Shown piece by piece: positions 6,819-54,819 of a DNA stretch of 62,954 bases. The DNA comes from a virus (taxonomy: Duplodnaviria > Caudoviricetes). Made by a program: the position numbers and the translations under genes. Within the stretch, counting starts at the first letter, position 1; the number at the start of each line of letters is the position of its first letter. Where the stretch lies: IMG/VR virus record IMGVR_UViG_3300035703_000093, positions 1-62,954 of that record; one strand, written 5' to 3'. The notes below the pieces were generated by a model that made no database searches, was not told where the DNA came from, and was given only the letters and a program-made list of their open reading frames with translations.

Positions 6819-7076
6819 GTGCCAATCGCTGACCCCCATGCCCGCCGAGAGTACATGCGTGACTACCACGCGGAGTTCCGGCTTGGGCTGCGGCGCTCGG
6901 AAGCGCCGGCGGTGGCGGAGGCAAAGATGGACACCCGCCGGGCGGAGCGTGAGGAGTATTTGCGGCGCTGGGCGGCGGAGAACAAGGAGCGCCGAACCGC
7001 GCAGCGCCGTGAACAGCGCCGGGCGGCGCGGCAGGCGGCCCTGGCGTCGGCGCTGGGCAAGGTAACGACGACATAA
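6819..7076 (+). CDS. Small Arg/Ala-rich hypothetical protein
   Basis: GTG start, charged helical sequence, 8 nt before the next gene. Confidence 0.5.
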   Translation: MPIADPHARREYMRDYHAEFRLGLRRSEAPAVAEAKMDTRRAEREEYLRRWAAENKERRTAQRREQRRAARQAALASALGKVTTT

Positions 7077-7084
7077 CCGATTTT

Positions 7085-7735: not shown

Positions 7736-7771
7736 GAGGAGATGATGAAGCCCGAATGAGGAATGACGAAT

Positions 7772-13785: not shown

Positions 13786-13822
13786 GCTTTTTTAAGGGTT
13801 CTCGGTTCGCTGTTCTCGGTTC

Positions 13823-14500
13823 TCAGTTGTTGGCGGATTCGAGGGTTTCGATGCGTTCTTCGAGTTTGAGGAGGTGGTTGCGCAGGCCGGAGAGGATGGT
13901 GGCAAGGTCGTTGTCCTTGAGGGGATCAAGCTGGATGCCGTGCTCGATGACTTTGGCCTGGAGTGCCGCGAGGTCGATGTTGTGCGCGGGCTCGGCGGCG
14001 GGTTTGGCGGGCTTCACCTTGTCGATGCCGAGGATCTTGCGCATGCTGGCGATGTTGCCGGCGGTGATGGTGATGGCTTTCTCGGCGAGGTCTTGCGTGG
14101 CTTTGATGGCTGCGGCGTTGTCGGACTCGGTGGCGACGTAGGCTTCATTATCGGCCTGCTGCATCCAGTATTGCAGGGTTGCCCGTTCGGTGAAGGTGAG
14201 GGCGTTGGTGGTGCGGGTGCGCTTGTTGGCCGGGGGTGGTGGGATGGAAGGAATGTGTAGGGTGAGGGCGACGCTGGCCTCGCGGTCCCAGTGCTTGGAG
14301 AGGGCGCGGTTGAGGTAGTCGTGCTGGGATGGACTGGTGAGGATGTCGTAGCTGTGCGGGGTGGTGACTTCGGCGAGGATGTGGTCGTCGCCGATGTGGG
14401 TGACGAGGATGTCGAGCAGGGCGGCGGAGATGAGGGGGCGCTCGGCGTCGATGAGGGCGGCGAGTTTCGGGAAGGCGGTGGCGAGGGGTGTGGGCTGCAT
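13823..14500 (-). CDS. Hypothetical protein
   Basis: MQPTPLATAF...; codon pattern matches neighbours. Confidence 0.6.
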   Translation of the reverse strand: MQPTPLATAFPKLAALIDAERPLISAALLDILVTHIGDDHILAEVTTPHSYDILTSPSQHDYLNRALSKHWDREASVALTLHIPSIPPPPANKRTRTTNALTFTERATLQYWMQQADNEAYVATESDNAAAIKATQDLAEKAITITAGNIASMRKILGIDKVKPAKPAAEPAHNIDLAALQAKVIEHGIQLDPLKDNDLATILSGLRNHLLKLEERIETLESANN

Positions 14501-19892: not shown

Positions 19893-20014
19893 GTTCTCGG
19901 TTCTCGGTTCTCGGTTCTCGGTTCTCTGTTCTCTGTTCTCGGTTCTCGGTTCTCTGTTCTCGGTTCTCTGTTCTCTGTTCTCGGTTCTCTGTTCGCGGTT
20001 CTCTGTTCGCGGTT
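19893..20014. repeat. Heptamer tandem array, about 17 units of GTTC(T/G)C(G/T)
   Basis: GTTCTCG/GTTCTCT/GTTCGCG units read directly. Shorter copies at about 13798, 25611, 26990, 30296, 36584, 37661, 39731, 42535, 42751 and 43581. Confidence 0.95.
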
Positions 20015-20016
20015 GG

Positions 20017-20784
20017 TCAGGCGGTGAGTTGCAGGATGTTGGTGGCGGTGGAGGTTTGGGCGGGAAGGTTGAGGCGGCGGCGGAGCCATTCGACGCCTTT
20101 GGGGGTGATGCGGGTTTGCGTGAAGGCGTGCTCGTGGGCCTCGCCGGTGCGGACGGTGAAGTAGCCGTCGCGCAGGTGCTCGGCGTAGGGCTGGAGGTGG
20201 CCGCCTTCGCGGAAGCAGAGGCGCTGCTTCTCAAGGCGGGTGGTGAACTGCTTCGGGGGCAGGCCGAGCAGCTTGGCCGTCTCCCGCAGGCCGAAGGTGC
20301 CCTCGGTCTGGACGTAGGACTCGACGAACTCGACGGCGGGGCGCTGGGCCTCGACCTGGAGTTTGAGGGCCTCGGCCTGCTCGCAGGAGTCGGCCAGCAG
20401 GCGGAGGGCCTCGGAGAAGGTCTTTGGCAGGTCGAAGGGCGGCGGGGGAGGGGCTGGGACGACGGTGTAGGTGCCGGTGCGGCGGAGGGTGGGGAGGACT
20501 TCACTGGTCACCCATTTGCGGAAGGTCTGGGCTTCGGGCTTGCGGGACTTGAAGACGAGAGTGTAGAGGCCGGACTCGGTTATGGTGACCACGGTTCTCT
20601 TGCCGTCGGCTGTCTCAGTAATACTTAGACCGCGCTCATCTTCGGCTAGACCTTTCGCGGCTTCGGTTGGGTTGGTAAGGCCTAAAGCGTTACATATATC
20701 GTGCATAACGAACTTGACCTGCCCGTCCTCGATGACGGTGCGGACGTTTTGCGTGCCGAAGGTGAAGGTTTGGAGGGTGGTCAT
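20017..20784 (-). CDS. Antirepressor, BRO-N + ANT/KilAC domains
   Basis: ITESGLYTLVFKSRKPEA..FRKWVTSEVLP.LRRTG.Y; LPKTFSEALRLLAD; TRITPKGVEWL. Confidence 0.92.
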   Translation of the reverse strand: MTTLQTFTFGTQNVRTVIEDGQVKFVMHDICNALGLTNPTEAAKGLAEDERGLSITETADGKRTVVTITESGLYTLVFKSRKPEAQTFRKWVTSEVLPTLRRTGTYTVVPAPPPPPFDLPKTFSEALRLLADSCEQAEALKLQVEAQRPAVEFVESYVQTEGTFGLRETAKLLGLPPKQFTTRLEKQRLCFREGGHLQPYAEHLRDGYFTVRTGEAHEHAFTQTRITPKGVEWLRRRLNLPAQTSTATNILQLTA

Positions 20785-20819
20785 GGTGCGGGTGGGGCTG
20801 GACAGGCTGGCAGCCTGTT

Positions 20820-21377
20820 TCACGCGGGGAGGTAGTGGGTGTCCCAAGGGTTGCCGTCGGCCTCGATGTTCCGCACGAGGCCGCGGTCGGTGAGGGCGTA
20901 GAGGTAATCTTGGACCTCATCGGCGGTGCGGTTGCAGTGCATGGAAACATCGTCCGGGGAGAAGCCGCCGGTGGGCTGCGGGGCGGCGTTTTTGACAAGG
21001 TGGCGCAGGGCGGCGAGAATTGATTCTTCGGCGGGCAAGAGGGCACCGTCCTTCATTTCTGCGCGGGCAGCGGTCATAGCTGCGCGGGCAGCGGTCATAG
21101 CTGCGCGGACGTAAGCGACGTAGGCGGTGAGGGCAGCTTTGGTTTCTGGGAGGTTGGGTTCAGTGAGGTTTGATTCTTCAATGGCGGTGAGACAGTTTTC
21201 CAATGCCTGTGGGTCAGCTTCCTCCAGGACGATAGGCAGCCATGCGGCGACACTGGCCAGCACATGACCAGATCTGTTATTTTTAACGAGGTAAACCGCA
21301 TGCGGCGTGCTTTGCAGGGTGTGTTCAAGGAAGGACGCGTGGTGATAATCTTCGAGGGTGGGAAGTGGGTCTTGCAT
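20820..21377 (-). CDS. Hypothetical protein with C-terminal winged helix
   Basis: EVQDYLYALTDRGLV; internal 21-bp tandem duplication at 21060-21108 (AAMTAAR x2). Confidence 0.6.
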   Translation of the reverse strand: MQDPLPTLEDYHHASFLEHTLQSTPHAVYLVKNNRSGHVLASVAAWLPIVLEEADPQALENCLTAIEESNLTEPNLPETKAALTAYVAYVRAAMTAARAAMTAARAEMKDGALLPAEESILAALRHLVKNAAPQPTGGFSPDDVSMHCNRTADEVQDYLYALTDRGLVRNIEADGNPWDTHYLPA

Positions 21378-22120: not shown

Positions 22121-22738
22121 ATGACAATCGACGCAACTTCATTGAAGAGCTGGCGCGAAAGCCGAAAGCTTTCCCAGCTCGATCTTGGTGGAATGCTTGG
22201 CGTTTCACACTCGGCGGTGAACCGCTGGGAGAACGGGCAGGAGATCCCCGGACCGGTGCAGATGCTCCTGCGTCTGCTCATCCACGGCGAGATGCCGTTT
22301 GGCGGCGGGCAGGAGGACACGGTGAAGGAGGAGGCGAAGCACTTCTGGTCGCTCAAGCTGACGCTGGGGGACTGGCACAAGCTGGAAGGGTTGGCGTCCT
22401 CGGCGGGCTTTCCCACGGTGCGGGACTACCTGCTGCATCTTATCCGTGAGCATTTGGAGGAGGAAACCTCCAAAACTTTGTTTATCAGCAATAATCAAGA
22501 TGCCGATACCGTTGGAAATGAGTGCTGCCCGCCCTCGTCAAGTGTCTCGACTGCAACTTCCTGCGAAACCGGCCCCACAGCGCGATCACCCCTGGCCTCG
22601 GCTGCGCCCATTGTCCCGCTACCGACAGCGCACTGGTCCGGGACCGGCGGCGGCGCACCCGCCGCAGGCGCGGGCGGCGAAATGGCGCGGCAGGATGTGG
22701 TGTATGAGAAGCCGAGGAGGCGGCGGAAAGCGGAGTGA
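22121..22738 (+). CDS. XRE-family HTH repressor (CI-like)
   Basis: LKSWRESRKLSQLDLGGMLGVSHSAVNRWENG. Divergent from the early operon. No peptidase domain seen. Confidence 0.82.
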   Translation: MTIDATSLKSWRESRKLSQLDLGGMLGVSHSAVNRWENGQEIPGPVQMLLRLLIHGEMPFGGGQEDTVKEEAKHFWSLKLTLGDWHKLEGLASSAGFPTVRDYLLHLIREHLEEETSKTLFISNNQDADTVGNECCPPSSSVSTATSCETGPTARSPLASAAPIVPLPTAHWSGTGGGAPAAGAGGEMARQDVVYEKPRRRRKAE

Positions 22739-23013
22739 AACCTTACGCCAGACAATGCGGCGGATCTCCGCCTGAACTATCCACGCAGTCCCATGCAGGC
22801 CGTCACAGTTTGGGAATGCAAGGGCGATCACCGAACGGACGCTTCATCGCCGACAAAACTCAATACTGCGAGTCCAGGCCTGGGGCGAAAGAGAAAATAC
22901 GCAACGCCAAACGCGCCTTGAAAAAACGTGCCAGACAACAACTCAAGCGCGAAATGCTGAGTGAGAACAATCAAACTGTGCCGACCGCTGGGGCGCTCGG
23001 TGCATCCGACTAA
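22735..23013 (+). CDS. Small basic protein (distal cassette-like gene, stop codon inside attC1)
   Basis: GTGA overlap with the repressor; NAKRALKKRARQQLK. Confidence 0.6.
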   Translation: MKPYARQCGGSPPELSTQSHAGRHSLGMQGRSPNGRFIADKTQYCESRPGAKEKIRNAKRALKKRARQQLKREMLSENNQTVPTAGALGASD

Positions 23014-23062
23014 ACCCAAAAGCCCAACCGCCCCAGCGGTTGGCACCAGTGCCGGGTTTAGC
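22962..23062 (-). other. attC site 1 (101 bp)
   Basis: Minus strand: GCTAAAC-CCGGC-ACTGGTGC-...stem...-GCACAGT-TTGATT-GTTCTCA, i.e. R'', 5 nt, 8-nt L'', 7-nt L', 6 nt, R'. Confidence 0.85.
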
Positions 23063-23073
23063 CCCGAATCACT

Positions 23074-23391
23074 ATGGACCCACTAATCACAAAAATCGAA
23101 GACCTCACAGAGTTTGCCGGACTGGAGCCAGAAACGATCACGCTGCTAAAGATGGCCGCCGAAGCTCAAAGGACGGGGAAAATGCCGCCGCTACCGATCA
23201 CGACTGCACCGGAACCAACAGTGGGATGGGTAAAATCACCGCGCCGAAACGATTTGGCTGAACGACCAAGCTCACGGCACTGCCGGGGGCGGAAACCAAC
23301 CTCAAACACACTGACTCTATGGCTAAGAAAAAAGCATCCAAAACACCCAGCGCCCCGGCAGTTGACCGTGCAGTGCCTGGTTCGCGCTTGA
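23074..23391 (+). CDS. Cassette E hypothetical protein (reads through attC2)
   Basis: ATG 12 nt after attC1; the C-terminal part is encoded by attC2. Confidence 0.5.
   Translation: MDPLITKIEDLTEFAGLEPETITLLKMAAEAQRTGKMPPLPITTAPEPTVGWVKSPRRNDLAERPSSRHCRGRKPTSNTLTLWLRKKHPKHPAPRQLTVQCLVRA
23257..23386 (-). other. attC site 2 (130 bp)
   Basis: Minus strand: CGCGAAC-CAGGC-ACTGCACG-...CTGCCGGGG/CCCCGGCAG...-CGTGAGC-TTGGTC-GTTCAGC. Confidence 0.88.
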
Positions 23392-23567
23392 TGCGAGTGT
23401 CTGACTTTGAGAACGCTTGCTCCGCTGATCTGAACTGCGACCTGTGGGATGGCTCGCTAAATGCACAGTATGGAGGTAAGATCACGCTGGCTGTGTCGGA
23501 GATGCGATACATCGCAAACGCCTTGCGCTTCATGCAGGGTAGAAGGCAACGCACATGCCTAGACTGA
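23319..23567 (+). CDS. Cassette D hypothetical protein (start inside attC2)
   Basis: MAKKKASK...; AVDRAVPGSR is encoded by the attC arm. Confidence 0.6.
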   Translation: MAKKKASKTPSAPAVDRAVPGSRLMRVSDFENACSADLNCDLWDGSLNAQYGGKITLAVSEMRYIANALRFMQGRRQRTCLD

Positions 23568-23568
23568 G

Positions 23569-23662
23569 CGCGAACGCGGAGGTAAACCAGCCATGAGCGC
23601 CTTTGATATTGACCCTGTGACAGCCCTGCCGCGAATGGCTTGGCTTCACCGTTTTGTTCAGG
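23569..23662 (-). other. attC site 3 (94 bp)
   Basis: Minus strand: CCTGAAC-AAAAC-GGTGAAGC-...AGCCAT/ATGGCT...-GTTTACC-TCCGC-GTTCGCG. Confidence 0.8.
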
Positions 23663-23895
23663 CTTTTCGGGCGTGGAGGCGTGGACGGCTGGAGAGACGA
23701 GCAGTTGCCATCGGAGCCAGATTGGAGCGCATCGAAATAGCTCGCGAGGTGATGAAGATATTTGGAGAAGATGCACTCAAGATCGGCTCGGGCTTTATTG
23801 TCGAGATCATCATGGATAGAATGGAGGCCGAGCGTTCCGAACATGGCCGCCTCAGTAACGAACTCGCACAGATCGAGAAAAGCCTGAACCGATAA
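23593..23895 (+). CDS. Cassette C hypothetical helical protein (start in attC3, stop in attC4)
   Basis: 100-aa ORF filling the cassette. Confidence 0.65.
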   Translation: MSAFDIDPVTALPRMAWLHRFVQAFRAWRRGRLERRAVAIGARLERIEIAREVMKIFGEDALKIGSGFIVEIIMDRMEAERSEHGRLSNELAQIEKSLNR

Positions 23896-24020
23896 AACGC
23901 AGCAACCCCATAGGGCATAAACACGATGGACTCTCCACTACCAACACCCGCCGCCGAAGCGGCAGACTCTCAACCTCCGACAGACGGCCCTATGGGGGTG
24001 GCTGCCGTGCCGTGTTCTGC
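23883..24020 (-). other. attC site 4 (138 bp)
   Basis: Minus strand: GCAGAAC-ACGGC-ACGGCAGC-...CCCCATAGGGC/GCCCTATGGGG...-GCTGCGT-TTTATCG-GTTCAGG. Confidence 0.85.
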
Positions 24021-24207
24021 GTTGGACGCGCTCGACTACGCAATTTACACCTGCAACAATAGGGCGGGAAGCCTGCGTCACGTTGCTTACAACGCAGCGT
24101 GTCACGACATCATTTGTTTTCTTGAGGCGGCAAAGGGTCGCCTCTTGGATGGCGGAGAATTATACGATTATGCGGTTACGCAGAACGACAAGGCTGAGGC
24201 ACCGTAG
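23926..24207 (+). CDS. Cassette B hypothetical protein (start in attC4, stop in attC5)
   Basis: 93-aa ORF filling the cassette. Confidence 0.62.
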   Translation: MDSPLPTPAAEAADSQPPTDGPMGVAAVPCSALDALDYAIYTCNNRAGSLRHVAYNAACHDIICFLEAAKGRLLDGGELYDYAVTQNDKAEAP

Positions 24208-24231
24208 GTTGCCTCCAGCCGCTAGTTCTCA
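24180..24231 (-). other. attC site 5 (52 bp)
   Basis: Minus strand: TGAGAAC-TAGCG-GCTGGAGG-CAACCTACGGTG-CCTCAGC-CTTGTC-GTTCTGC. Confidence 0.85.
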
Positions 24232-24273
24232 TTCCGTGGTCTATGTCGCCGAAAAATAATTTCACTTTGGCCG

Positions 24274-24302
24274 TTGAAAACCTAGCTAGGTTGTGGTTTA
24301 AT
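24274..24302 (+). promoter_or_regulatory. Sigma70-type promoter with palindromic operator
   Basis: TTGAAA-17 nt-TTTAAT with extended -10 TG. Perfect palindrome AACCTAGCTAGGTT (24279-24292) in the spacer. Confidence 0.7.
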
Positions 24303-24367
24303 GGTCGTGTTCTCAATCGAGGACACCGCGCCGGGCGGTTCCCGGCCACTGCTCAAAGCACACTGAC

Positions 24368-25087
24368 ATGAAACACACCATCGAAATCCGCAACGGCTCC
24401 GGCTGGAACAACTATGCTGGCCTCAAAGACCTCAAATCCCTGCCCGCAGGCACCAAGGGGTTGATGAAGAAAAACGGCGTCGCTGAAATCCACATCGGCC
24501 CCGCCGATGATGAAAAACCATTCGGAGTCGCCGCTCGCTATTACGACGCAGACGGCGAAATGATCTGGGAGCAATCGTTTGGCGAAGACAGTTCAGCAAG
24601 CTGGATCAGGAGCCGAGTGACCGCGCTGCTTGAAGAAACAATCAGCGTCCGCCGTGAAAAAGTCCGCGCTGAACGTGCGGCGGAGGCACTCAAGAAAGCC
24701 AACGCAGCAGGCTTCGCGACCGCAAAAGAACACAGCGATCATCTCGCTGCGATGGCGGCCGAGTCGAAAGCAAAAGCAGCAGCAGAACGTGATGCCCGTT
24801 GGGCATGGCTCAAGGGCGAAAATGGCGGACAAGAAGCCGCCGCTGCGGCTCTTGAGAAAATGCGTGAACTGCGCAAAGCCTGCCCGCAAGCCGACGGCAT
24901 GACTCGCGGCGGCAAGCTCGGTAAGCTCATCAATCCTGCCTCCCCATCGGGAGGGTGGGCCGAAGTGTTCGAGGCTTTCGTGATCGACAACGAAACCCGC
25001 AGCAATGGAATGCTCGCATGGCTGCTGCAAAACGGCCACCGCGCCGGTCTCGATGACCGTCATTTCTTCTTCGTCGCAGCCGCATGA
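24368..25087 (+). CDS. Cassette A hypothetical protein
   Basis: 239-aa ORF with A/C-rich codon usage distinct from the phage backbone. Confidence 0.75.
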   Translation: MKHTIEIRNGSGWNNYAGLKDLKSLPAGTKGLMKKNGVAEIHIGPADDEKPFGVAARYYDADGEMIWEQSFGEDSSASWIRSRVTALLEETISVRREKVRAERAAEALKKANAAGFATAKEHSDHLAAMAAESKAKAAAERDARWAWLKGENGGQEAAAAALEKMRELRKACPQADGMTRGGKLGKLINPASPSGGWAEVFEAFVIDNETRSNGMLAWLLQNGHRAGLDDRHFFFVAAA

Positions 25088-25263
25088 AACGTGAATCTCT
25101 CGAACTCCAAGAATCAGACTGGCAGCGGCTCACGGAAGTGGCCGCTGCCACGTCGTCAATTTACTCCGACCGGCCATCATGGCGCAGGCTCATCCTGCGC
25201 ATCGCTCGCGGCGAAGTCCGCTGCTCGGAAGCGCCGAAGGCCAAGAAGCGCCCGAAGGAATGA
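25084..25263 (+). CDS. Cassette A small RHH-like protein (59 aa; not in ORF track)
   Basis: ATGA overlap; MKRESLELQESDWQRLTEVAAATSSIYSDRPSWRRLILRIARGEVRC...; its stop TGA is the first 3 nt of the att box. Confidence 0.65.
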   Translation: MKRESLELQESDWQRLTEVAAATSSIYSDRPSWRRLILRIARGEVRCSEAPKAKKRPKE

Positions 25264-25290
25264 GAACACTGATTCTCAAACAAAAGTCGC
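25261..25290 (-). other. Putative attI
   Basis: Minus strand TTGAGAA-TCAGT-GTTCTCA, with no attC hairpin, 36 nt from the intI start. Its R box is complementary to R'' of attC5. Confidence 0.7.
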
Positions 25291-25302
25291 CGATTAACCC
25301 CG

Positions 25303-25599
25303 ATGAAAACGCGCTCTCCATCCGCTCGTGCTACATTGCAAAAATGCGTCGATCTCCTTCGCAGGAAGCATTACGCGCTCACCACGGAACAGAGTTACTG
25401 TCAGCACATTGGTTCGTATATTGACTGGCTGCGTGATGTGCAGGAACTGCTGGGCCACGCCATCCTGAACACGACGATGATCTACGTCCATGGCGACGGC
25501 GAACGGGTGAGGAGTCCGCTGTCTGCGATGCCGCTGCCTGCCAACGTGGTGCCGTTTGAGTCGCAACAGTCGCAACAAAACCTGGGGAGGGTTGCGTGA
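25303..25599 (+). pseudogene. intI: Internally deleted integron integrase (98-aa open frame)
   Basis: IntI N-terminal motif LRRKHYALTTEQSY joined in frame to the C-terminal RDVQELLGH...TTMIY.H....VRSPL. The central catalytic domain is missing. Confidence 0.88.
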
Positions 25600-25645
25600 T
25601 GGAAACGCCAGTTCTCAGTTCTCAGTTTCCTGCTAACGAATCATC

Positions 25646-26071
25646 ATGAAAGCCCGAGCCGCCATTTGGAAAACACTGGTCGATGAATGCCTGGACAAGG
25701 GGATGTCCCTGCGGGCGACGGCGGCGTTTCTGGCGCTGCCGGTGGGGACGGTGAAGACCTGGAGGCATCGGCAGAGGAAGCAGGCGGACAAGAGTGTCCG
25801 CGTTTCCATGAAACCAGCGATGAAACCGGCTCCTGCGAAGGAGAGGGCCACGGCCATGAAACCAGGCATGAAACCGGGGGTGCATCGCGGGCTGACGGTG
25901 GAGATGATGCCGGGGCGGACGGGGTGGGAGCGGCGGATGACGTGGAGCCTGTTTAGGCGCGGGGAGTGGCCGCCGAAGGAGTGGCGCATTCCGGCGGATT
26001 TGGAAGGCCCGGCGCTGGCGTCGGCGCTGGGGGAGAGGGCGTTCAAGAGCAAACCGAGGGGGGAGGCGTGA
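25646..26071 (+). CDS. HTH protein with MKP repeats
   Basis: GMSLRATAAFLALPVGTVKTWRHR; ATGAAACC repeated 4 times. Confidence 0.6.
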   Translation: MKARAAIWKTLVDECLDKGMSLRATAAFLALPVGTVKTWRHRQRKQADKSVRVSMKPAMKPAPAKERATAMKPGMKPGVHRGLTVEMMPGRTGWERRMTWSLFRRGEWPPKEWRIPADLEGPALASALGERAFKSKPRGEA

Positions 26072-26831: not shown

Positions 26832-27383
26832 ATGAGTAACCGGATTGACGGGGAATCCCCTGCCCTGCGGCTGTGGCTGCCGGGGTATCATACGCCGTCG
26901 TTGAACCGGACGGCGGGAAAGCACTGGGCGAAGGTGCGGCGGCTGCGGCTGGAAACGGCGGAGGCGCTGTATGAGGCGCTGCGGGGCGGGTTCTCGGTTC
27001 TCGGTTCGCGGTTCGCGGTTGAGGAGGCGCGGAGGGTGTTGTCGAAGATGCTGCTCAAGGTGCCGCTGGAGACGCGGCGGGGCAAGAAGCCGGACAAGCC
27101 CCTGGTGCCGGCGTATCTGCGCATTGAGCGGGTGGCGTGCGTGCTCCTCGATGAGGAAAACTTCAAGGGCGGCACGAAGGGCCTGACGGATCTGCTGCGC
27201 TACGCGTTTCCCACGGTGCTGCTGGACGACGGGCCGGGGTATGTGGTGATGGAGCACGTCCAGACCAAGTGCTCGAAGCGGTGCGAGGAGGGGACGTGGG
27301 TGGAGCTGAGGCTGGGGAAGGCGGAGAACGAAGGGCGGAGGGCGGAGGGGATGTCGGCGGCGGTCATGGGCGGTGGAGGATGA
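26832..27383 (+). CDS. RusA-like Holliday junction resolvase/endonuclease
   Basis: PSLNR; LDEENFKGGTKGLTDLL; LLDDGP. In-frame heptamer insert at about 26990-27020. Confidence 0.65.
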   Translation: MSNRIDGESPALRLWLPGYHTPSLNRTAGKHWAKVRRLRLETAEALYEALRGGFSVLGSRFAVEEARRVLSKMLLKVPLETRRGKKPDKPLVPAYLRIERVACVLLDEENFKGGTKGLTDLLRYAFPTVLLDDGPGYVVMEHVQTKCSKRCEEGTWVELRLGKAENEGRRAEGMSAAVMGGGG

Positions 27384-29148: not shown

Positions 29149-32100
29149 TCACAGGCTGGCAGCCTGTCTCACGAGGAGAGGGGCGCGTTGTTTGATGCGC
29201 TGGAACTCCTGAAGGGCGTTTTCGAAGGCGGCGCGGGCCTCGCCGGTGAGGGAGGCGCGGAACATGGATTGAGCGTCTTGAGCTGAAATGCCTTTGCGCT
29301 TGATTCCACCGACTACCATCAAAGGATTGCGGTAGAAGAGGAGCTTGTTGATGTCCTGCTCGGTGCGGACGGGGTGGCCCATTTTTTCGAGTGATCCAAG
29401 GATGTTTTTGATCGCTTTAAGGTTTGGTTCGTCCTGCGCGAGCTGGGCAAAGAGGGCCTTGCGGGCGCGGGAGGCGGGCGTTGTTGAGCCGTAGTCCATG
29501 CCTTCCTGCACTTCTCCTCCTTGGGCGATGATCCAATCGTGGGCTTTGCGGTAGAGGTCCGGGGTGGCGTTCTTGACGTTGAGGCCGACGACGGCGCGGG
29601 TGAAGGCCTGGGCGGGGTCGTAGGTTTCGAGGGTCTTGTTCGTGGCGCGGTCGCCGGCACGCATGAGGGTGTTGAAGGCGGTGCCACCGGGGGCGAGGGG
29701 TGGCAGGGCGACGCCGGCGGCGTGCTTGGTGTAGGCTTTGATCTTCTCGAGCGGCGTCATGCCGAACTCGGCGATGGGGCGGCGGGTGAAGGCGTCCTCG
29801 TTGTGCCTCCAGGCATCGACCAGGGAGAGCACGGGGCCGCCGGAGACGATGCCGCGCCAGAAGCGGTTCCACGGGTCCTCGGTGGCATCGGTGACGGCGA
29901 CGCGGGTGCCGAGGAGATCGGCGAAGGGCATGATGGCGGAGATGTCGAACTGCTGGACGGCCCCTTGGGCGCTGCGGAAGGGCAGCAGCATGGAGAACAG
30001 CGGGGTGTCAAAGGCGAAGAGCTTCCCCTTCCCTGCCATGTCTTTCTGGATTTCCTCCATGTCGTCGTCATCGAGGCCGAGCAGCATGGCGGAGATCGCG
30101 GTCACGATGGCCGGGAAGCTGAGGGCTGCGGTGAGGGCGAGCGGGCGCTCGGCGACGGCGGTGCCGAGGATGCGGGTGGACTCGCGGAAGAAGGAGAAGA
30201 ACGGGTTCACGAAGCGGCCGACGGCGCGGGTGGTGCCGGACTGGCCGAGGCGGTCGTAGTAGGGGAACCATTTCCGCACATGTTCCGCTGCGCGGGTTCT
30301 CTGTTCGCTGTTCTCGGTTCCCTGTTCAGCGAGTTCGGCCTTAGCTTTGAAGTAGGCGGCGGCTTTGAAGAGGTCGTCGGGGAGGCGGCGGAGGCTGGCG
30401 AGGAACTCGTGGGAGCCGTGGAGGGTGGCACCAAAGCCGAAGAGCATGCGCTGGACGAGGCCGGGGTCGTAGTCCTCGATGGTCTTGGGGTCGGGCAGGA
30501 GGCCTTTCAGGCGCTCCTTCACGAGGCCGGTGTAGGCGTCGCCACCGATGACCTGCTGTTCGATGAGTTCGGCGAAGTCTTTGCCCCCGGTGCGGAGGGC
30601 GGCGATGGCCTGCTGGTAGTAGGGCCAGTTGCCGGGGTTCCAGAGGCTGTTGCCGGCGAGGGTGGCGAACATGGTGTTGCCGACGGCGTCGCGGATGTGG
30701 GAGCCGGGGTTCCAGACGAGTTTCCCAGCCTTCCACTTGCGCAGGATGGCGTCGTAGAACTGGAGCGCGGCGTTTGGCACATCGACGAGGTCGAGGATCT
30801 GCGCGGCGATGTCCTTGCGGACGTGCTTGCCGGCGAGAGGGCCGAAGCGGGAGGCGTCGGGAATGGCGGTGAAGCCGTTGAGGGCGATGTCGCTCACCCA
30901 TTCGGGGTGCTGGGCGGTTTTGCGCAGCAGCTCCATGGTGGCGGCGTTGTGGGTCTGGCCGAGGACGTAGCGGGCAACGGCATAGACGGGGTCCTTCACG
31001 AGTTTGGCGGGCTCGAAGGGGTCCTTCGGCAGGAAGCGGTCGTATTGGTGCTTCTTGGCCTGCTTCACGATGCCGGCGAGCATGGGGGAGAGCTTCGCGG
31101 TGTTGGCGATCTGGTCCACGGTGAGGGACTTGATCTGGTCGCGCATCGAGGCGCGTTCGGAGCGCGAGAGCGGGGCGAGCATGTCGGCCACGGTCTTGTC
31201 GCCACGGTCCTGGAGCATGTTCAGCGTCTGCTGGCGCACGAAGTCGTGGTAGAAGGCGTCGCGGGAGGCGGCGTCGCGGAAGCGCCAGCGGTTGCGTTTG
31301 CCGCCCTCGTCGCGGGAGACAGTCACATACTGGCCGGTCTTGTCCTTCCGGGTGGTATCGACGATGTGGTAGGCGGTGGAGCGCTGCTGGAGGAGATCGC
31401 GCACGCCGAGCTTGAACGCGGCGAGGAAGGAGCCGGCGGACTCGCGGGCCTCGTCCTCGGTGTAACGGGGCATCCAGCCGTTCGACTGGAGTTCCTCGAA
31501 GGTGTCCGGGTTCATGAGGCCCTGGCGCACGAGTTCGGAGCCGGTCTGGCGGAGGAGATCGCGCAGGCGCTCCCCGAGGCGCTGCATTTCCGGCGGCAGT
31601 GTGGCCATGGGGACGCGGCCCTCCATGGCATCGAAGAGCTGGGCGCGGGCGGCGGGGTTCTCGGCGAACTCCTTCGGGTAGGCGAGATCGGAGAGGCGGG
31701 GATTGCCGGAGAGGGCGCGGATGAGGTCGTTCGCCGTCTCCTGGCCGTGGGCGGATTTGCGCTGCATCTCGTGGTGCAGGGCGAGCCATTCACGGGGCAG
31801 GAGGGCGGTGGGGAGGACTTGATCGACGAGGCCTTTGATGGACGGGGCGAGGCCGTCCGGCTTGTCGAGCCAGGTTTCGACGGCAGCTTTGGCGCTGCGG
31901 AGCTTGGGGCCGGCGAGCTTGTCGAGCTGGGCGGCGAGGCGTTTGTCGAGGTTGTTCGAGCCGAAGGTGGCGAGGGGTTGCTGGATGCCGAGGGCGTCGG
32001 CAAGGTAGCCGTTCACGCGCAAGGGCACGAGAGGTGCCTGGACGAGGCCTTTGATGACCTTTGAGGCCAGTGCGCCCGTGAGATCGACGGCTTTGCCGGC

Positions 32101-35100
32101 GAGGTCGAGGGACTGGGCGGCACCGGGGACGGTGAGGAGTTTGCGGTCGAGGGCGACGGCTGTTTCGGCGATTTCGCGAGCGTTGGGAGTGGCGGCTCCG
32201 ATGGCGGTGCCGATTGTGCCGCCGATGGCTGCACCGGGGGCTCCTGCGACCAAAGCGCCTGCGCCTGCGCCGATGCCGCCCCCGATGAGGGCACCGCTGG
32301 TGGTGTTTTTGAGGCGGTTGGAGGCGTAGAGAACGCCTGTCAGTCCGTCGGGCAGGCCTTCTCGGCTTCCAATCTGAGAAAGTAAACCCTCAGATTCGCC
32401 TCTTTGAAATGTTTCAAGCGCGGATGCCGTGACGATTGCTCTTTGAAGCGTTGCCAGTCCAATTCCAGATGTGTCGGGATGGGCGTCAAGGACCGCACGC
32501 TCGATTTGCTGCTGCCCCACGGGCTGTCCGGTGCTGTCGATGAACTCGTCACGAGTGAAATCGTAGCGCCAGTTCCGGGCTTCCGCAACCGCCTTGAAAG
32601 CGTTGTCCATCTCCTTGGTCAAAAGCGCGGCGGTGTTGATGGCGGCATTTTTCCCCCACGGCACCTTCTGGCGGTCGTGAGGTTTGAGGTGCTTGGTGGT
32701 GCCGTGGCGCAACGCACTGCTGGCAAAATTCGACGTGCGGCGGATGGCGTTGATGCTGGTAAGCCCGCCCGGATCGTCTTTGATGCGTTTGCCGTTGTTG
32801 TGAATCCAATCCAGCGCTGCCTGGTAAATTTGCGCTCCTCCCCCGCCTTTTTTGCCTTTGGATTCGGCCGCAGTGCTGCGGATGTAGGGGCGGTCAGTGT
32901 CGGCATCATGGATGTCCAAGTAGCCGTTTTTGCCGTGAAAACGCACGGTGTCACCCTGACTCGCGGCCGTGACGAGCTTGCCTGGAATCGACACCGCCTC
33001 AGCGATTTTGCTGGCGCTGGCGTTGCTGGTGCGTCCGTATTGGAATGCCTCATCATGGGCCGCCAGAGCACGCCAGACCTTGGCGACAAACGTGCGGGCC
33101 GGAGCGCGGGCTTCTTCGTCACGCTGATCCAGAATGTCCTGCCACCAAGACGCCGTGCCCATCGGCTGGGCGGGCGTGTTGGGTGGGAACCACTGCGGCA
33201 GCCAGCGGCGGTTGAGTGCGTCCATGTCCTCCTGCTGCTGGCTGGCCTCTTGCTGGAGAAATTCCAGCGCCAGTCGGGATGACTGCTTTTCCATGCGCTC
33301 CTGAACCACCTCGGAAGAATAGATGTCAACATCCGCCCCCAATTTGATCAGCTTGAGGCGTTTTTCCAAGTGTTCACCCCAGCCATTGATCTCGTTGGGT
33401 GTTACGAAAGACAGTAGCTCTAGCGCCCTGTTGAGATACTTTTGGAACTGCTCATCAAGCAGTGTTTGCGGGTAGATGTTTGAGGCGGCTCCTTGGTCAA
33501 TGAGGGCGGCACGGGCGGCTTTTCTTGAATCTAAAACTTCAGCGGCTTTGTTAGCCGTTGGGTGGATGCCATATGAAAGAAGCGACTCATTCGCCAGCCG
33601 CTTCAACTGGTTGTTTTTGTCGATCTTGCTGCGGATTTCCTGAAGTGCTGGCGTTCCGTTGAGGAACCATTGTTGATCCTGCGGTAAATCGTCATGCGTG
33701 CCGCCGTTCCTCTGGAGTTTTTCCAAAAATGTCCGCATGGCAGGCAGCGCCTCCTGCTGGAGCTTGGCACGGCGCTGTTTTTCAGCATCTTGTTCAGCTT
33801 GGAGACTGGCTTGTTTCGCCTGAGCGTCGGACAATGCCGACTCGTTTTTCTTGATGCGCGTCTCGATCTGCCAGCGGGCCGCTTGGCCGGTGTCTCCCAC
33901 GGTTTCACCGCCGCCGTCATACCTGGACCCCAGCACGGGCACGGTGCGGTTTTCGGTGGCAGAACCGATCTGGAAACCCACGATCTCCACCTTGTCACCT
34001 GCGGCTTTTCGCAGATCCTTGATCATGTCCGCCATGTAGCCGGAGCGCGTGTCCGGGCCGTCGCTGAAGTCGATGCCTGGCAGGTTTTCCACCGCCAAAC
34101 CCGTCGCCACATGGCCGGGCTGCTGCGGCTGGGCCAGGAACCGCAGGAGTCCAAGTTCCTCATAGTCGTCATTTTGCGGCGGGCGTGGTGGCAGAGCGCG
34201 GGCGCGGCGACTCCAGAAGTTCAGCAGAGCGGTGCGGGGGTTGGTGTAATTGCTGCTGGTTTGCCGCTCTCCAGCGGAGTTCTCGACCCGAAACTCACCG
34301 CGCTCTGTGCGGCCCATTTTGAAACCTTCGGGTAGATCTGGAAGTTTTTGGTAGGTTACAACAAATTCAGCCGCATTCATCTTGATCCGGTCACCGGCCT
34401 TATTGACCACAATGACCGCATTGATAGGCTCGTTGTGGTTGAGGTAATAGCCGGTGCGACTATGGGGTAGCGAGCGAGTGAGAGCCGCCTTATCGGCAGC
34501 AATGGACTCAATCAGTCCTGACACCTTGCGCTGAACAGAACTGATTTCATCCCGCTGGCTCTGGGATGTGAAGGGGTTTGTCATTGACCACCAATCGGCA
34601 ATTTTGGCAGCCGCGTCAGAATCCAATTGCGGAAGCGCTTCAGTTGGTTTATTATTCCCCGTCGCAGCGACAACATCCTCTGCCAGGGAGGATTCTCCGC
34701 TCCCCTCAATCTGGTTTGGGGAGCGGCCCCGTTGAAGCAATGACATGGGCTGGTTCGCCAACTCACTCTGCGACATCTCCCCGCCCTGGGAAACTGGGGC
34801 GGGGTTTTTTGTGCGTCCGGCGCTGGCAAGCAAAACCGGCTTGTCGTGGGGGCTGGTGGGTTGGGGCAGCGTCTTGGCGAGTTTTTCGATCTGCTCCTTG
34901 GTGACGGGCTGGGTGGTGTCGTGGGTGGTGAGCCAGTGTTTGAAGACGGGGATCGTGGTGGGGATGGCGCTTTGCAGGCCTTTCCAGCCTTTGGTGTAGC
35001 TGGCCATGTAGCCGCGGGCGGCTTCGGCGGGGGTGTTGAAGCCGAGCATGACCTTGTGCTCGTCGAAGTGGCCGTTGCCGGGTTTGCGCTGGTTCACGAT

Positions 35101-38100
35101 CAGCACAAGCTGGGAGTCGGGGTTCGGGCCGAGGAAGAAGTCGAGGTGGCCTTTGTCGCGGCCCACGGTGCCGAGGATGCGGCCGTAGTGATGCGGCAGG
35201 GTGACGGACCAGGGCTTGCCGGTGGCGTCGGTGCCGCTGCGGGTGCTGCCGGCGGGGTTTTCGATGCTGAGGCGCAGGCCGTGGACGTCCACCTTGCCGG
35301 TTTTGTAGTTCTCGGCGTCCTTCTGGGGCTGGGTGGGGTTGGTGTTTGTCGCTGCTGCCGCAGCGGCCACTTGCGTGGCGAGATCGGAGCGGACAGGAGT
35401 GTCCGCGCCCCCTTGGCGGTCGGAGGCGGCGAGAGGGGAGCGCTCGGTGGCGAGGCGTTCAAAGGTGGCGCGGAGGGCTCCGGTGGGGTGGAGGATGATG
35501 TTGTCGAAGACGCGGAGGAATGTGCCGTTGTCCTGGGTGATGGCGTTTTCGGTGTGGAGGTCGAGGACGGCGAGGTTGTCTGCCGGGCGGTAGTAGGCGG
35601 AGGGGGGATCAAGTTGGATGAAGCCTGCGGCTTCCATGGCGGGCTTGATGGCGGTTTCCTGCGCGGCGTATGCGCCCTGGTAGTGCGGCTGGGAGGTGAT
35701 GAGGGCGACGTTGCCGACGCGATCCGCCCAGACGGCGTGGAGGACGATGTCGTCGTGGAAGATGCTGTTGTGGAGCAGCAGCTTTTCGAGGTAGGAGGCG
35801 GCGTCCGCGCCTTCGCGGGCGATGTCCCATTCATCACGGTAGTCGCGGGGCTGGTAGCCGTAGGAGGTGCCGTCTCCACGGGTGATTTTCACCCAGCGGC
35901 CTTCCTGGTCGCGGAAAACGTGGTGTTCAGAGCCGCCTTTGTCGAGGGGACCGTCGAGGTCGTAGCGGGAGGGTGGGTCTGTGATGAGGATGCCGGCGGC
36001 GCGTGCCCAGTCGGTCAGGAGGGCTTTGTCGCGGCGGCGGTCTGCTGCTCTTCGAGCTGCCGCATCCGGCGCAGATGATCCGCCTGTGCGTTGGCTTCGG
36101 CGGAGGTGTGAGAGGAGAGCCGGGAGTTGAGCGCGGCTGCTTCCTGCCTGGTCGGCAGGCGGGGTTTCGGCGATGGGGCGGCGTTTTCCATGGAGGTAGG
36201 CATCTATCGCATGAATGCGGGTTTCTTCCAGTGCTTTAGCTTCGGGCGTGGAGAAAGGTGGCTCGGTGATGCGGGCGCTGGAGGCGAGGGGGACCATCAT
36301 ATCGGTGGACATGATGCCGGAGGCGTTGCGGAGTTTGAAGGGGCCGGCGGCGGCGACGGTGGCGGCGGACTCGGGCGGGGAGAGGAGGACGGCGCCGGTG
36401 TCGTCGCCTTCCTTCACGCCGCGCATGAAGGCGGCGGGGGTGACGGCGGGGTTTTGGGCGTGGAACTGGTTCCACACGGCGCGGATGGGGAGCCACTGCG
36501 AGGACTGGCCGCGCAAGGCGGACTGGTAGGCGCGGGAGATGAGGACCGGGGTGACGGGAATGAGGGCGGTGAGGCCCTGGCCGGTTTGCGGTTCGCGGTT
36601 CGCGGTTCTCTGTTCGCGGTTGCGGAAGAACGCGGCGCTGGAGCCGAGGGTGGTGGGCGTGAGAGCGCGGTCGAGCGGGAAGCGCTGGGAGGCGAAGAGG
36701 GCCTGGCCGGCGAGGGCGGAGTCGCGCATCTGGTGGGTGATGCGGATGAGGTGGATGGGGGTTTCGGAAGCAGGGAGACTTGAAGACGGGGAGACAGGCG
36801 GAGTGGTGGGGTTGTCGAGTTCTTCCTGGAGGCGAATCTGAGCGCGTTGTTGAGACGGGTATTGACCGAAGACGCCGTTGGGGAATTCAATGCCCCACGT
36901 TCCGGGCTGCATTTGGACAACGCCAATTGGGGGGCCTTGGGGCTGGGAGTCGGAGGTGGCACGCTGTTTTGCGGTGATGCTGCTGCTTTCCACGGTGCCG
37001 CCCCAGGGTTTGACGTATTTGGCGAACTCTTTGACGAGGATGTCGTCGTAGAATTTGCGCATGCCCTGGCCGCCGACGCGGAGGTCGAGGCCGGTGTAGT
37101 TTACGACGCGAGAGGGTGAGGCGAATCGGAGGTCGCTGACGATGCGTTCGGCGAGTTCTTTGCCAACGATTTCCGGCAGTTCCTCGGCGGTGAAGGCTTC
37201 CTTGGGCAGCCGCACTTCGTGGTCGTTTTTATCGAGGACGGCGATCTCGTAGCGTGTCTGGTCGAACTTCTTGGCGTCGATGCGTTTGACCTGCTTGCTG
37301 AGGTCGTAGCGGTCGGCCTGGGTGTCGCCGGTGGTCCAGCCGATCCACTGCTTGCCGGACTGGACGGCATCGAGCAGGGCGCGTTTGAAGAGCATCAGGG
37401 GCCAGGAGGCGCGGTAGGGGGCGTCGGGGACTTTGGCTGCTTCTTCGGGCGATGCGGGCACGGTGCCGCCAAACACACCGGGGACCGTCTGCATGGTGTC
37501 CCGGTAACCCTTGTCCCGGCCCATCTGGTGCCATTTGGACTGGAATTCTTCGACGAGGAGGCCGTTGCCGGCGGCATTGGTGCGGTCGGTGGTGCGATAC
37601 CAGGCGAGTGCGTCGAGATCGCCGTAGTGGGTGCGGTCGGTGTCGAGGTTGGGGGAGTTGGTTCTCGGTTCGCTGTTCTCGGTTCGCGGTTGGTTCCAGG
37701 TGATGACGACTTCCTGGGGATTGGTACCGCCGGGGAGGGTCAACTGGGTGTTGCGGGTGGTGGACTGCATGCCGCCGGGGTTCACGCGGTTGTAGCCGTC
37801 GTTCATGTCGGCAACGGTTTCCTGGGCGGAGGCTTCGGTGGGCTCCCAAATGACGAATTCGCCGGCGGGATTGATGACGTCGAAGCCTTGGCCGTTGCGC
37901 TCCGGGCGCAGGGTGGGGCGATAGGTGAAGCGGTCGCTCAGGTTGCCGAAGCGGGTGACGGTGAACTTCACGCTGCCTTCGGTGGCGAGGTAGGCGAGGA
38001 CCTGGTCCTGGGTGATGGGGCCGTCCTGGGCCTGGGACTGGAGCCACTGGCGGATGCCGGTCCATTTCATCTCCTCTTCTTTGAGTCCGGCGTTTTTGAG

Positions 38101-41100
38101 GATGCCGAGGATATGCTCGGGGGTGGCGCGGGCGGGCATCTTGGCGCGGACGGCTTCCGCAAGGGCGGAGTAGAAGCCGGGCTCGACGTATTCGACGCGG
38201 CGGTTGGAGGCGCTTAGGCTGACGTCATTGACGTCGTTGTCCTCATTGACGGATGGGGAGCTGAAGCGGTCGGCGTCTTCTTGGAGCTGGGCTTCGAGGT
38301 CGGCGAGATCGATCTCGGGGGAGGTTTCGAGCGGGTCGTCGCCGGGGCGGCGGTCGGCGTCGAGTTCGGCGGCGACGCGGGCGCTGGTTACGCGGTCCCA
38401 GCCGGGGCCGCCGGCGAGGGTGGCGTCGAGGGCGGGGGTGTATAGGCCGGATTGAGGATCACGCTTTCCAGTTTGGCGCGGTTCTCCGGCAGGTAGTCCG
38501 CGTTGATTTTGCGCAGCTCCTCCAGACTGAGTTTGGAGAGGTCCGTCACTGTCTCCGAGGGGGATGCCGCCGGGGCCGTAGGTGCGGACGGGGGCGGAGG
38601 GGAGACGGAGGTCTGCGACGGCGGCGGGAGAGAGGGCAATGAATTCATGGCTCGGTTTCTTGGGACTACCACGGAAGGTTCGGAGGACGGTCCAACCAGC
38701 CTTTTCAAGCTGATCGACGACGCGACCGTTGAAATTGTTGGTCACCACATACCGCACATCGCTCCCCTTGGGAAGCAGATACTTTTCGAACTTCTGGAAC
38801 CAGAGGGCGGGGTTGGCATCGCCGAGGGTGGTGTTGCCGTAGTTCATGACGGCCGCGCCGGCGGCGGTCTGCTCGTCGGTGGGGAAGTAGGAGGTATCGA
38901 CGAAGACGAGGGCACCGGCGGGGGCATCGGCGGCGAGCTGCCAGCCGTCGCCCTGGCGGATGGTGGCCTCGGTGAAGCGGCGGGAGGCGTCGCGAATGAG
39001 AGCTGGCATGTCCGCACTCCAGACGCGGGAGGGGCGGTTGTGCTTCATCGAGTTCGAGGGGTTGTCCCAGTAGATGAAGGCGAAGTCGTCCTTGCCGTTG
39101 AGTTTGCCGCCGGTGAACGTGCGCGGTTTGCCCTCGGCATCGAGGTCGAAATCCACGACGCGGTTTTCCGCCATGTTGTTCTGGAGGAAGAGGTAGAGGG
39201 CTGCGGTGCGCGGGGTGTCGGGCAGCGGGAAGCGGCCCATGGCGTCACGGGCCTGCGTGGGGAGGTAGTCCTCCAGCGTCTGGTTGATCCAGGCGTGGAT
39301 ATTCCGGCGCTTCTCCATGGTGGCCTCGTAGGTGGGCTGGATATCGGTGATGGGGAAGGCGGTGTCGAAGGCAGAGCGCAGGCTGATGAGTTCGCGCACG
39401 ACGGCGGCGGGGGCGTCCTTGATCTGGCGGTTGGTGATGCTGCGGGAGTATTCCCATTCGTTCCAGGTGGAGCCGGCGGGGAGGTTGCCCTGCTGGGCGA
39501 GGAAGTGGGTGTAGATGGCGGCTCCGCCGAAGGCATCGAGCACGACGGTGGCGGGCTCGACGAGGGAGAGGTAGAAGGTGCCGTGGCGGCCGAGGAGGTC
39601 GCCTTTGTTGCCGCTGATGAGGTAGGGGGCGATGGCTTTGATGGCGTTCGCCGTCATCGGTGAGCCTTCGGGGACGGGGAGGGTTTCGAGGCGGTAGTCG
39701 TCGAAGGAGGTGCCCCAGAAGTCGGCCTGTTTGTTCTCGGTTCCTGGTTCGCTGTTCTCGGTTGAAACAGGGCGGACAGGAGTGTCCGCGCTCCCTTGAG
39801 GAACAGCGACGGGGAAGCTCATGTCATCTTCGTCGAGGGCGGCTTGGCGGCGGGCGATGTCCGGGGGCATCTCACCGAAGCGGCGTTCGATATGGGGCGC
39901 GTAGGGGCGGAGGGCCTGCTGGGCGGCCTCGGGGGTGATCTCGGGGAGGTCACGCTCGGCCATGACGGTGTTCCAGGCGCTGCGGAGGTGCGGGTGCTTG
40001 AGCGCGTGGAAGGCGTCGGCGGGGAGGCGTTTGACGAGGTGGGCGAGGAGCTGCGGGAAGGCGGTGATGCCGTGGCGCTCGACCGCGCCATCGACGAGGC
40101 GGGAGGCGGCGTCACGGAGGCGGGGGGAGGCGGCGAGCAATCCTGCCTCCTGGAGGGCGGCGATGACTTCGGCGTCGTCAGCGGCGTCCAAGGCATCGCG
40201 GGCAGGATTGCCCGCGCTATTGTTGAGGCGCAGGTGGTTGGGGCCGGCGGTGAGGTTGAGGGTCTGGCCGGGCTGGGGGGTGACGGAGCCGAAGCGGTCG
40301 CTGTCGAGGGTGAGGGGGTCGGTGTCCTGGACGGTGAACCATTCGGAGCCGATCTGGATCTCGTCCTCGGGCTCGAGTTCGCGGGCGAGTTCCTCGGTGG
40401 TGAAGGGCTGGCCAGTGGCTCCGGCGGCGTAGGCGGCGAAGTCCTGGGCGCTGGCGAGGGCTTCTGCGGCATCGCGGGCTTCGATGTCCTGCACGCTGTC
40501 TGTGTTCTTGGCGGCCATGCGGGCATCGAGGGCATCGAGGATGGCAAGGCCGAGTTCCTGGCCGGAAGAAACGGACCACGGGCGGGCGATGCGGGTGTCC
40601 TGCTCGGTGGTTTGCTCGGTGTCAGAAAGCTGACCGGCGGCTTCGTCGATGCTGGATGGCTCGGAAAGGTTAACGATGCCTTCCTGAAGCAGCCAGGCGC
40701 GTTTGCGGGCGGGGTCGCTCACATCCCCCTTCCGTGCAGCGGTCTGCGCTTCACGTTTGCTTTGAGTTGGGCCGTTTTCGGCGTCGCGGGTGAGGTCGCG
40801 CCACCAGTCCCAGTTGGAGCTTTCATTTGGGCCGCCGATGCCGCCAAAGCGCTCCTTGAGTTCGGAGATGATGTCTCCTCCCACGGGTGGTGGCAGGGCT
40901 TTGGATTTCGACTCCGGCATTTTGGCCCAGGAGCGAAAACTGACGGGGCGGAAGATGGAGAATGACGAGGCTTTGGGCGCTTCCTCGACAAGGTGGTCAT
41001 GGTAGGCTTTGAGCTTTTCCTCGATTTCGGCGGAGGTGAGCGTGGTGTGCTCCATGAGCCTGGCGATGAGCGCGAGTCCACGCTGCTGCGCTTTTTGCTT

Positions 41101-54724: not shown

Positions 54725-54819
54725 GCCGGTCACGGTGGGTGGCAGAATGACGAATTGGCAAGCGGGTTTTGTTGCGATGTTGGGGGAAATGGGGTAGGGT
54801 GGGACGATAAAGGCCGCAG

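Follow-up and report, generated by a model that had tools for sequence, protein, structure and literature searches.

Here we describe a decayed integron in IMGVR_UViG_3300035703_000093, a Caudoviricetes record of 62,954 bp (a contig of ~63 kb) that was analysed over its complete length and is referred to below as the window. Our reading, to which we assign a probability of about 80%, is that this integron sits in the early rightward operon of a temperate phage and that its recombination platform is canonical, with every cassette gene reversed so that it reads towards attI and the integrase gene, intI. The integron stretch, 22961-25302, comprises five attC-like hairpins, five cassettes and attI, and the array lies directly upstream of intI (Table 1). 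With five attC sites and an intI that has suffered a large internal deletion, it is functionally a cluster of attC sites lacking an integron integrase (CALIN), accompanied by a pseudo-intI. A preliminary description of the same DNA had proposed an inverted cassette design, and the controls for attC polarity, coding strand and sister arrays presented below show that the design is real rather than an accident of annotation. Its coordinates for attC top strands on the minus strand and for cassette open reading frames (ORFs) on plus, reading towards attI and co-directional with a helix-turn-helix (HTH) regulator gene, all check. The five AA^C crossover points that it gave, 22967/8 to 24185/6, are confirmed as well, and we add a sixth at the attI junction.

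In folds and alignments the five hairpins show the anatomy of attC sites: imperfect hairpins with AAC/GTT R boxes, an unpaired spacer, extra bases on one arm and a variable loop. This is clearest in site 3, which reads AAC, a five-base unpaired spacer, a 14-nt arm, the loop, a 16-nt arm with two extra bases, a five-base spacer and GTT. Furthermore, the 8-mers flanking the segments between hairpins are reverse complements of each other, at 8/8 positions in four consecutive segments (23380/23575, 23656/23889, 24014/24186 and 24225/25267) and at 7/8 in the fifth (23056/23263), so that each cassette's own core site is complementary to its own inverse core site. Because these complementary 8-mers flank segments and not hairpins, they are the strongest evidence for genuine cassettes: the pattern marks site-specific cassette movement and is the product expected of integron recombination at G^TT.

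The bottom strand of an attC site carries 5'-AAC in R' at its 5' end and has its extra bases near L'', on the 3' arm (Nivina et al. 2016, PMC5027507). Four independent lines (the arm with the extra bases, the ends of the array, the conserved attI, and a duplication in a sister array, L029) support the conclusion that the recombining bottom strand of every attC in the window lies on plus and the top strand on minus. By eye, all five sites have one or two extra bases in the L stem of the plus 3' arm. A fold-based measure of extra bases proved noisy, and an arm alignment was used instead; it gave 0, 3, 2, 1 and 0 for sites 1-5, three positive values and none negative. Among all chained hairpins of all loci (n=138), 97 were positive, 16 zero and 25 negative. 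The corresponding figures were 62, 9 and 11 for 18 viral arrays upstream of intI (n=82), and 13, 4 and 4 for five bacterial arrays (n=21); L086, whose array lies downstream of intI, had the opposite sign (-4 and -4). As for the ends, the array begins with a full hairpin, site 1, and at its other end a segment is followed by a lone AAC (25265-25267), beyond which no palindrome lies. The sequence from AGAAC to the intI ATG is alike in the window, L004 and L003, and the sequence to the left of it is unrelated in the three-way alignment, which identifies attI. Several pairs of loci are 86-98% identical in intI and attI and become dissimilar exactly at the attI AAC; similarly, a contig from X4, a groundwater run of another study, matches 25264-25296 and has unrelated sequence before 25264. 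Finally, L029 contains an exact 305-nt duplication (6842-7146 and 7522-7826), the second copy of which abuts attI. The duplicated unit consists of AAC, hairpin, GTT, gene segment and the next AAC, and, judged from this arrangement, it looks like a recent copy-and-reinsert event. Since the unit was copied into the first position, the mobile unit is a hairpin plus the segment to its right; such a unit would be cut at AA^C, and each gene would follow its own attC.

If plus were instead the top strand, these would be ordinary cassettes, with genes that start after the GTT and end in the right-hand attC and with an integrase remnant unconnected to them. We regard this as improbable, although it survives better than any other alternative. 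It would explain why ATG 23391 and TTG 24022 stand directly after R boxes, why stops lie in or near the next hairpin, and why the homology of ORFs E and F-G begins exactly at the GTT box. However, it would put the extra bases on the wrong arm, and it conflicts with the array end in the window, L003 and L004, where segment plus AAC meets a conserved attI 36 nt ahead of intI, with an L029 unit bounded by AAC and not GTT, and with ORFs C and D, whose start codons must lie left of the GTT box. The alignments also run the wrong way for it: in an all-against-all comparison, in which hairpins and segments were often conserved separately, three alignments took in a hairpin together with its right-hand segment (L029-L033, L013-L043 and L015-L022) and none took in a segment together with its right-hand hairpin.

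Less probable still is that the hairpins are intergenic palindromes of the phage, such as terminators or regulatory repeats, beside an integrase fragment that is there by coincidence. An Rfam gathering scan of the whole window matched a tRNA alone, the hairpins thus matching no Rfam family, sites 1 and 2 score as terminator-like on minus (none of the attC sites does on plus), and the phage is rich in heptamer repeats beginning GTTC, all of which such palindromes would accommodate. Yet they would not place reverse-complement 8-mers around segments rather than hairpins. Nor would they recur upstream of intact integron integrases, as this site family does in viral contigs: a home-made attC covariance model (E<=0.01), built from nine sites, the five of the window and four of L002, and hence circular for the window, gave 63 matches in 60 other loci, 60 on the intI strand and 3 on the opposite one, and found no further plus-strand site in the 63 kb of the window. 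In L004, a 56.8-kb viral contig whose intI is intact, a run of 13 linked cassettes stops 35 nt short of that gene, and the L004 hairpin 7065-7148 is 76% identical to site 1. A strict chain detector joined three of the five window segments (hairpin 3 failed the energy filter), and among 40 mononucleotide shuffles of the window it produced a chain of 3 in 2 and a chain of >=4 in 0; an earlier detector that allowed 7-of-8 matches was dropped as unspecific, all five of five shuffles having given chains of 3-4.

The conclusion that the cassette genes are on plus, reading towards attI and intI, is supported by homologues of ORFs C, D, E, F and G, by third-position substitution bias in F and G, and by codon scores. 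ORF C has 4 homologues at 60-79% identity. An exhaustive search found three remote relatives of ORF D, including P0035 (E 3.4e-14) and P0037 (E 6.9e-4), where a word-based search returned the self-match alone, and ORF E has one relative, in L139, at 76% amino acid identity. That relative forms the last cassette of a locus (L139 2325-3243, in a 30-kb viral contig) with three attC-like sites; it adjoins a gene read by eye as a small terminase subunit, and no intI was found within the 6.2 kb examined. Relatives of ORF F, at 38-94% identity, occur in nine metagenome loci; the attC model found no site in the eight of these that were scanned (L058 was left out), and L050 represents an array context. 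The window is 90% identical to L050 over 24225-25272. Here ORF F shows 59 synonymous and 15 non-synonymous codon differences (11/7/66 by codon position), and ORF G 10 and 2 (2/1/11). Scans of viral contigs with ORFs F, C and B returned nothing, ORF F had no usable match in the ESM Atlas, and no cassette ORF of the window matched a Pfam, PHROGs or NCBIfam family (ORF A was scanned against Pfam and PHROGs alone). A codon discriminator was trained on plus versus minus ORFs of 18 sister arrays and was right, on leave-one-locus-out testing, for 87/89 and 79/81 of them. It scored ORFs A-G all positive, ORF B at +40.8 (its cassette part by itself +35.5, its tail +3.6), and 6/8 minus ORFs of the window negative. 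That the real genes are minus ORFs such as 23198-23776 and 23658-23924, the latter having been named as a candidate in the preliminary description, and that the plus ORFs are chance frames in GC-rich DNA, is barely credible: long minus ORFs are present and a stop-free test was undecided for 3/5 window cassettes, but the minus ORFs cross cassette boundaries, score -17.7 (23198-23776), -19.7 (23658-23924) and -49.0 (24593-25063), lack Pfam or PHROG matches in the one that was tested (23198-23776), and oppose plus ORFs with the homologues and substitution bias just described. ORF A, which had been counted among the cassette genes, is not one of them: it lies outside the array, with no attC match to its left, and its being a gene is uncertain.

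The reversed layout is general among viral-contig integrons, and the bacterial integrons with which we compared them are canonical. Chains of hairpins were detected in 30/138 loci. Across the 100 cassettes of 18 viral arrays the longer ORF was on plus in 73 and on minus in 22; five bacterial arrays whose attC sites have that polarity had it on minus, the canonical strand, in 26/26. Two Verrucomicrobiota contigs from metagenome-assembled genomes, L081 and L135, share this attC family and its polarity, but their genes, lipoprotein-like and others, are canonical and on minus. Among the 89 plus ORFs of the viral arrays Pfam matched 15 families, with C-5 methylases three times, Mom and N6/N4 methylases twice each, and Dam, Mu Gam, HNH, DUF551, GNAT and others once each; none of the 81 minus ORFs had a match. 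This cargo of DNA methylases, Mom, Gam and HNH suggests counter-defence. Additionally, when the codon discriminator was applied to the 2.5 kb upstream of intI, 12/12 viral loci outside the training set were positive on plus only, and genome loci divided into nine minus-dominant, five plus-dominant and three without a call.

Several observations weigh against our reading. The preliminary description expected similarity to stop at AA^C, and this holds on the right, where homology ends at 24187 for ORF E (L139) and at 25272 for F-G (L050); on the left it begins at the GTT box instead, at 24014 for E, whose nucleotide similarity spans 24014-24187, and at 24225 for F-G, so that the hairpin, which should travel with its gene, is not conserved with it. 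This could have arisen through occasional top-strand excision and then normal insertion, which would re-pair a segment with the hairpin of a neighbour; top-strand recombination is about a thousand-fold below that of the bottom strand (PMC13108822). ORF D scores just +3.1 in codon usage, though it has homologues, and two minus ORFs of the window score slightly positive, at +1.6 (23530-23844) and +6.2. The five plus-dominant genome loci are L059, L062, L063, L099 and L135, the last of which has its ORFs on minus by eye. Of the 100 plus ORFs in viral arrays, 64 stop beyond AA^C, which is awkward for a self-contained mobile unit; the other 36 stop at or before the AAC, 17 of them using a TAA that belongs to a TAAC box. 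Both tools, attC model and codon discriminator, were trained on this family. A scan with a strict promoter consensus found 0 sites, and F-G may run from a promoter of its own (24274-24302, an element that likewise fails the strict scan) and not by read-through.

The interlocking of genes with attC sites that had been reported is accurate in its coordinates: the ORFs at 23319, 23593 and 23926 begin inside sites 2, 3 and 4, the stops at 23013, 23895 and 24207 fall within sites 1, 4 and 5, and the ORF ending at 23391 crosses site 2. The claim drawn from it, that attC supplies the start codon and N-terminus, stands for ORFs C and D. The N-terminal 24 residues of ORF C, encoded by the loop and 3' arm of site 2, are kept in 4/4 homologues and an internal Met is absent from 2/4, and therefore the start at 23319, in the attC loop, is real. 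The family core of ORF D starts at residue ~17, upstream of the GTT box, where the L'' arm, spacer and R'' box of site 3 do the encoding; the two ATGs that could serve as its start, at 23593 and 23635, are both within that site, with GGAGG 8 nt before 23593. Judged from these comparisons, translation of both predicted genes must start inside an attC. ORF E may start either inside or after its attC: its L139 relative is similar only from the GTT box onward, a TTG follows the box directly in the window, and L139 has an in-frame ATG in its own, differing hairpin. Coding into the upstream hairpin is not a general rule across sister cassettes, where the 45 nt upstream of the GTT box were open in the main frame in 67 of 81 cases and in the other two frames in 59 and 53. 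Contigs of X3, a freshwater metagenome run of another study, match site 2 at 23260-23385 and 23263-23383; the latter is a ~88% identical copy of the site between flanks that are unrelated on both sides, and past its GTT box the frame of the site-encoded peptide runs on into different sequence. This N-terminal peptide may thus be attached to differing proteins. At the other end of the genes, it follows from the sequence that reshuffling would change the C-terminal tails of ORFs B, D and E, as had been suggested.

The product of 25303-25599 combines an N-terminal SAM_4 match with one to the final 25 positions of the tyrosine-recombinase catalytic domain. Its best NCBIfam family is TIGR02249 (E 3.7e-9), with XerC behind at 4.6e-6. 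Alignment indicates that it retains residues 1-43 and the last ~55, the ~243 between them having been lost in frame. It does not qualify as a functional integron integrase, scoring 36.4 bits against a TIGR02249 cut-off of 265, a value exceeded by 7/8 of the full-length relatives tested (270-277 bits; the eighth, P0002, reached 259.3). There are 29 longer relatives of 176-366 residues (28 of them 313-366), one of which is named an integron integrase in its source. The deleted gene recurs in run X4, where a contig spans 25307-25621. The end of an ORF in the related phage L002 (10466-10825) resembles the last residues of the remnant (25560-25599); L002 may retain the 3' tip of intI alone, which would make two independent integrase decays in one phage lineage. 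In genomes, the closest integrases are from Verrucomicrobiota, at 46-51% identity, and the host of the phage is probably a member of this phylum. A quick IntI tree placed L003 and L004 in one well-supported 28-row clade, with reversed-cargo loci elsewhere too, and we make no claim from it of a single origin for reversed-cargo integrons.

The platform itself is canonical, with attI 36 nt upstream of intI, intI reading away from it and the attC bottom strands on the intI sense strand. We propose that cassettes and intI would be transcribed together by read-through from a phage promoter upstream of the HTH gene. This is the simplest route because the cassette genes and intI are co-directional and only 36 nt separate the crossover from the intI ATG; the drive by a phage promoter that the preliminary description put forward is inferred from synteny. 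A cassette promoter beside attI would then be superfluous, and the integrase would be expressed in step with phage transcription. Since intI has its deletion here, reshuffling would require an integrase in trans, and this copy is probably static unless one acts on it.

Like canonical integrons, whether class 1 mobile or sedentary chromosomal, the window has attI directly upstream of an intI that is transcribed away from it, and attC hairpins with R boxes, spacer, extra bases and variable loop, bottom strands on the intI sense strand and complementary cassette ends. Unlike theirs, its genes are on the side of the bottom strand, each behind its own attC, and point towards attI; moreover, the crossover is just ~35 nt from the intI start codon and the integrase carries an internal deletion. 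According to integron theory, recombination of the bottom strand serves to orient promoterless genes for the cassette promoter. Phage genomes, temperate and virulent, are known to carry integron parts, including integrase-less attC clusters; Vibrio, P1 and Shewanella cases and attC clusters in virulent phages have been reported (Qi et al. 2023, PMC9892861). The text of that report accessible to us does not mention reversed gene orientation, and its supplementary tables (Table S2) could bear on the point. A literature search found no description of wholly reversed arrays in phages, which, with the same Table S2 to consider, is no proof of absence. Treponema-type inverted-integrase integrons resemble the window in that intI and cassette genes are co-directional, but there intI reads towards attI, the array is downstream and the genes have the normal relation to attC (PMC3607928). 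Here intI reads away from attI, attI and array both precede intI, and the genes have the reverse orientation to their attC; the Treponema layout is exemplified by L086. Many toxin-antitoxin cassettes in Vibrio arrays sit reversed. Such cassettes carry their own promoter (PMC13108822), and F-G is like them in having a promoter-like element, which would make its genes independent of a cassette promoter. The window differs in that the whole array is reversed and in that no toxin-antitoxin family was detected, ORFs F and G matching no Pfam, PHROG or NCBIfam family at usable E-values.

Table 1. Features of the integron and of the surrounding phage genome (positions in the window)
Feature	Position	Strand	Remarks
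attC site 1	22961-23063	- (bottom strand on plus)	last of array; crossover 22967/8; 68 bits plus, 19.9 bits minus
attC site 2	23256-23387	-	crossover 23262/3; 60.2 bits
attC site 3	23568-23663	-	crossover 23574/5; 52.4 bits; arm asymmetry +2
attC site 4	23882-24021	-	crossover 23888/9; 54.8 bits
attC site 5	24179-24232	-	short (54 nt); crossover 24185/6; 42.1 bits plus, 12.2 bits minus
attI	25260-25302	+	crossover AA^C 25266/7, 36 nt before intI ATG
Integron integrase gene (remnant)	25303-25599	+	in-frame internal deletion of ~243 codons, junction near 25431; from NCBIfam TIGR02249, alignment to full-length relatives, blastn to L004
ORF A	22735-23013	+	left of last attC, outside any cassette; codon score +36.7; uncertain gene
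ORF B	23074-23391	+	cassette part 23074-23262; tail reads through attC site 2
ORF C (82 aa)	23319-23567	+	start in site 2; stop directly before R box; codon score +20.3
ORF D (100 aa)	23593-23895	+	start 23593 or 23635 in site 3; stop 6 nt past AA^C, in site 4
ORF E (93 aa)	23926-24207	+	longest-ORF start in site 4, alternative TTG 24022; stop 21 nt past AA^C, in site 5; codon score +16.8
ORF F (239 aa)	24368-25087	+	conserved phage protein family; codon score +91.4
ORF G (59 aa)	25084-25263	+	ATGA overlap with ORF F; stop inside R box; codon score +22.1
Promoter-like element	24274-24302	+	in first cassette; TTGAAA, 17 nt, TTTAAT; stretch common to L050 (first hexamer TTGACA there)
HTH (XRE-family) regulator gene	22121-22738	+	Pfam HTH_3, E 7.7e-9; first gene of the rightward operon with the array
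Tyrosine (phage) integrase	5284-6483	-	
Bro-N/ANT antirepressor	20017-20847	-	
SU10-type portal	52535-54838	-	
tRNA-Pro	55223-55296	+	anticodon AGG; low-GC stretch near right end of phage block

The integron has inserted into a rightward operon spanning 22121 to ~27383: homologues of the HTH regulator occur in two related phages, of which L001 has the next backbone gene directly after the HTH gene, with no array between, and L002 has a different five-site array at the same spot, with a trace of the 3' end of intI. At 22-26 kb the GC content is 0.56-0.60, against 0.61-0.68 in adjoining kilobases, and the GC skew, +0.28 to +0.41 in the flanks, drops to near zero. A blastn search with 22700-25700 found no match among 50,697 deposited phage records. 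The portal, antirepressor and tyrosine integrase, together with a crAss001_48-like protein, a CHAP-domain protein and a DUF2303 protein, mark the contig as that of a temperate phage. About one third of the phage genome is taken up by one ORF of 6,629 codons (29149-49038, minus strand) with a good coding score. Tandem arrays of heptamers (GTTCTCG, GGTTCGC) in 4-17 copies are found across the genome, for example at 19893-20014, 13797-13828, 26989-27020, 36582-36625 and 43582-43619, and the repeat unit is similar to the R-box motif of the attC sites of this phage. In run X1, a contig joint at 26996 and loose ends at 26989-27021 coincide with the heptamer repeat at 26989-27020. The joints of X1 contigs were treated as assembly ambiguities, their sides being short and at least the one at 26996 lying at a heptamer repeat. 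A methyltransferase-like backbone gene (7827-8299, minus strand) is 75% identical at the DNA level to the L043 cassette 3562-4046; on this comparison, one gene can be both an ordinary phage gene and a cassette.

Taken further, the findings would define phage integrons as a class distinct in architecture, a proposal that we rate at even odds. In this class the cargo would lie on the attC bottom-strand side and be transcribed towards attI, cassettes and integrase would form one unit under early phage control without a cassette promoter, and the non-template strand, displaced during transcription, would be the one that recombines; the cargo would be largely counter-defence and DNA modification (methylases, Mom, Gam), and some attC sites would double as translation starts and N-terminal coding sequence. 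Annotation tools limited to genes on the attC strand would miss such cassette genes. This array, and seemingly many phage integrons like it, would show that the integron platform can run in reverse by means of the host element's own transcription. Such arrays bear on the birth of cassettes, when the orientation of a gene to its attC is fixed, on the control of integrase expression outside the SOS system, and on how phages stockpile and exchange accessory genes.

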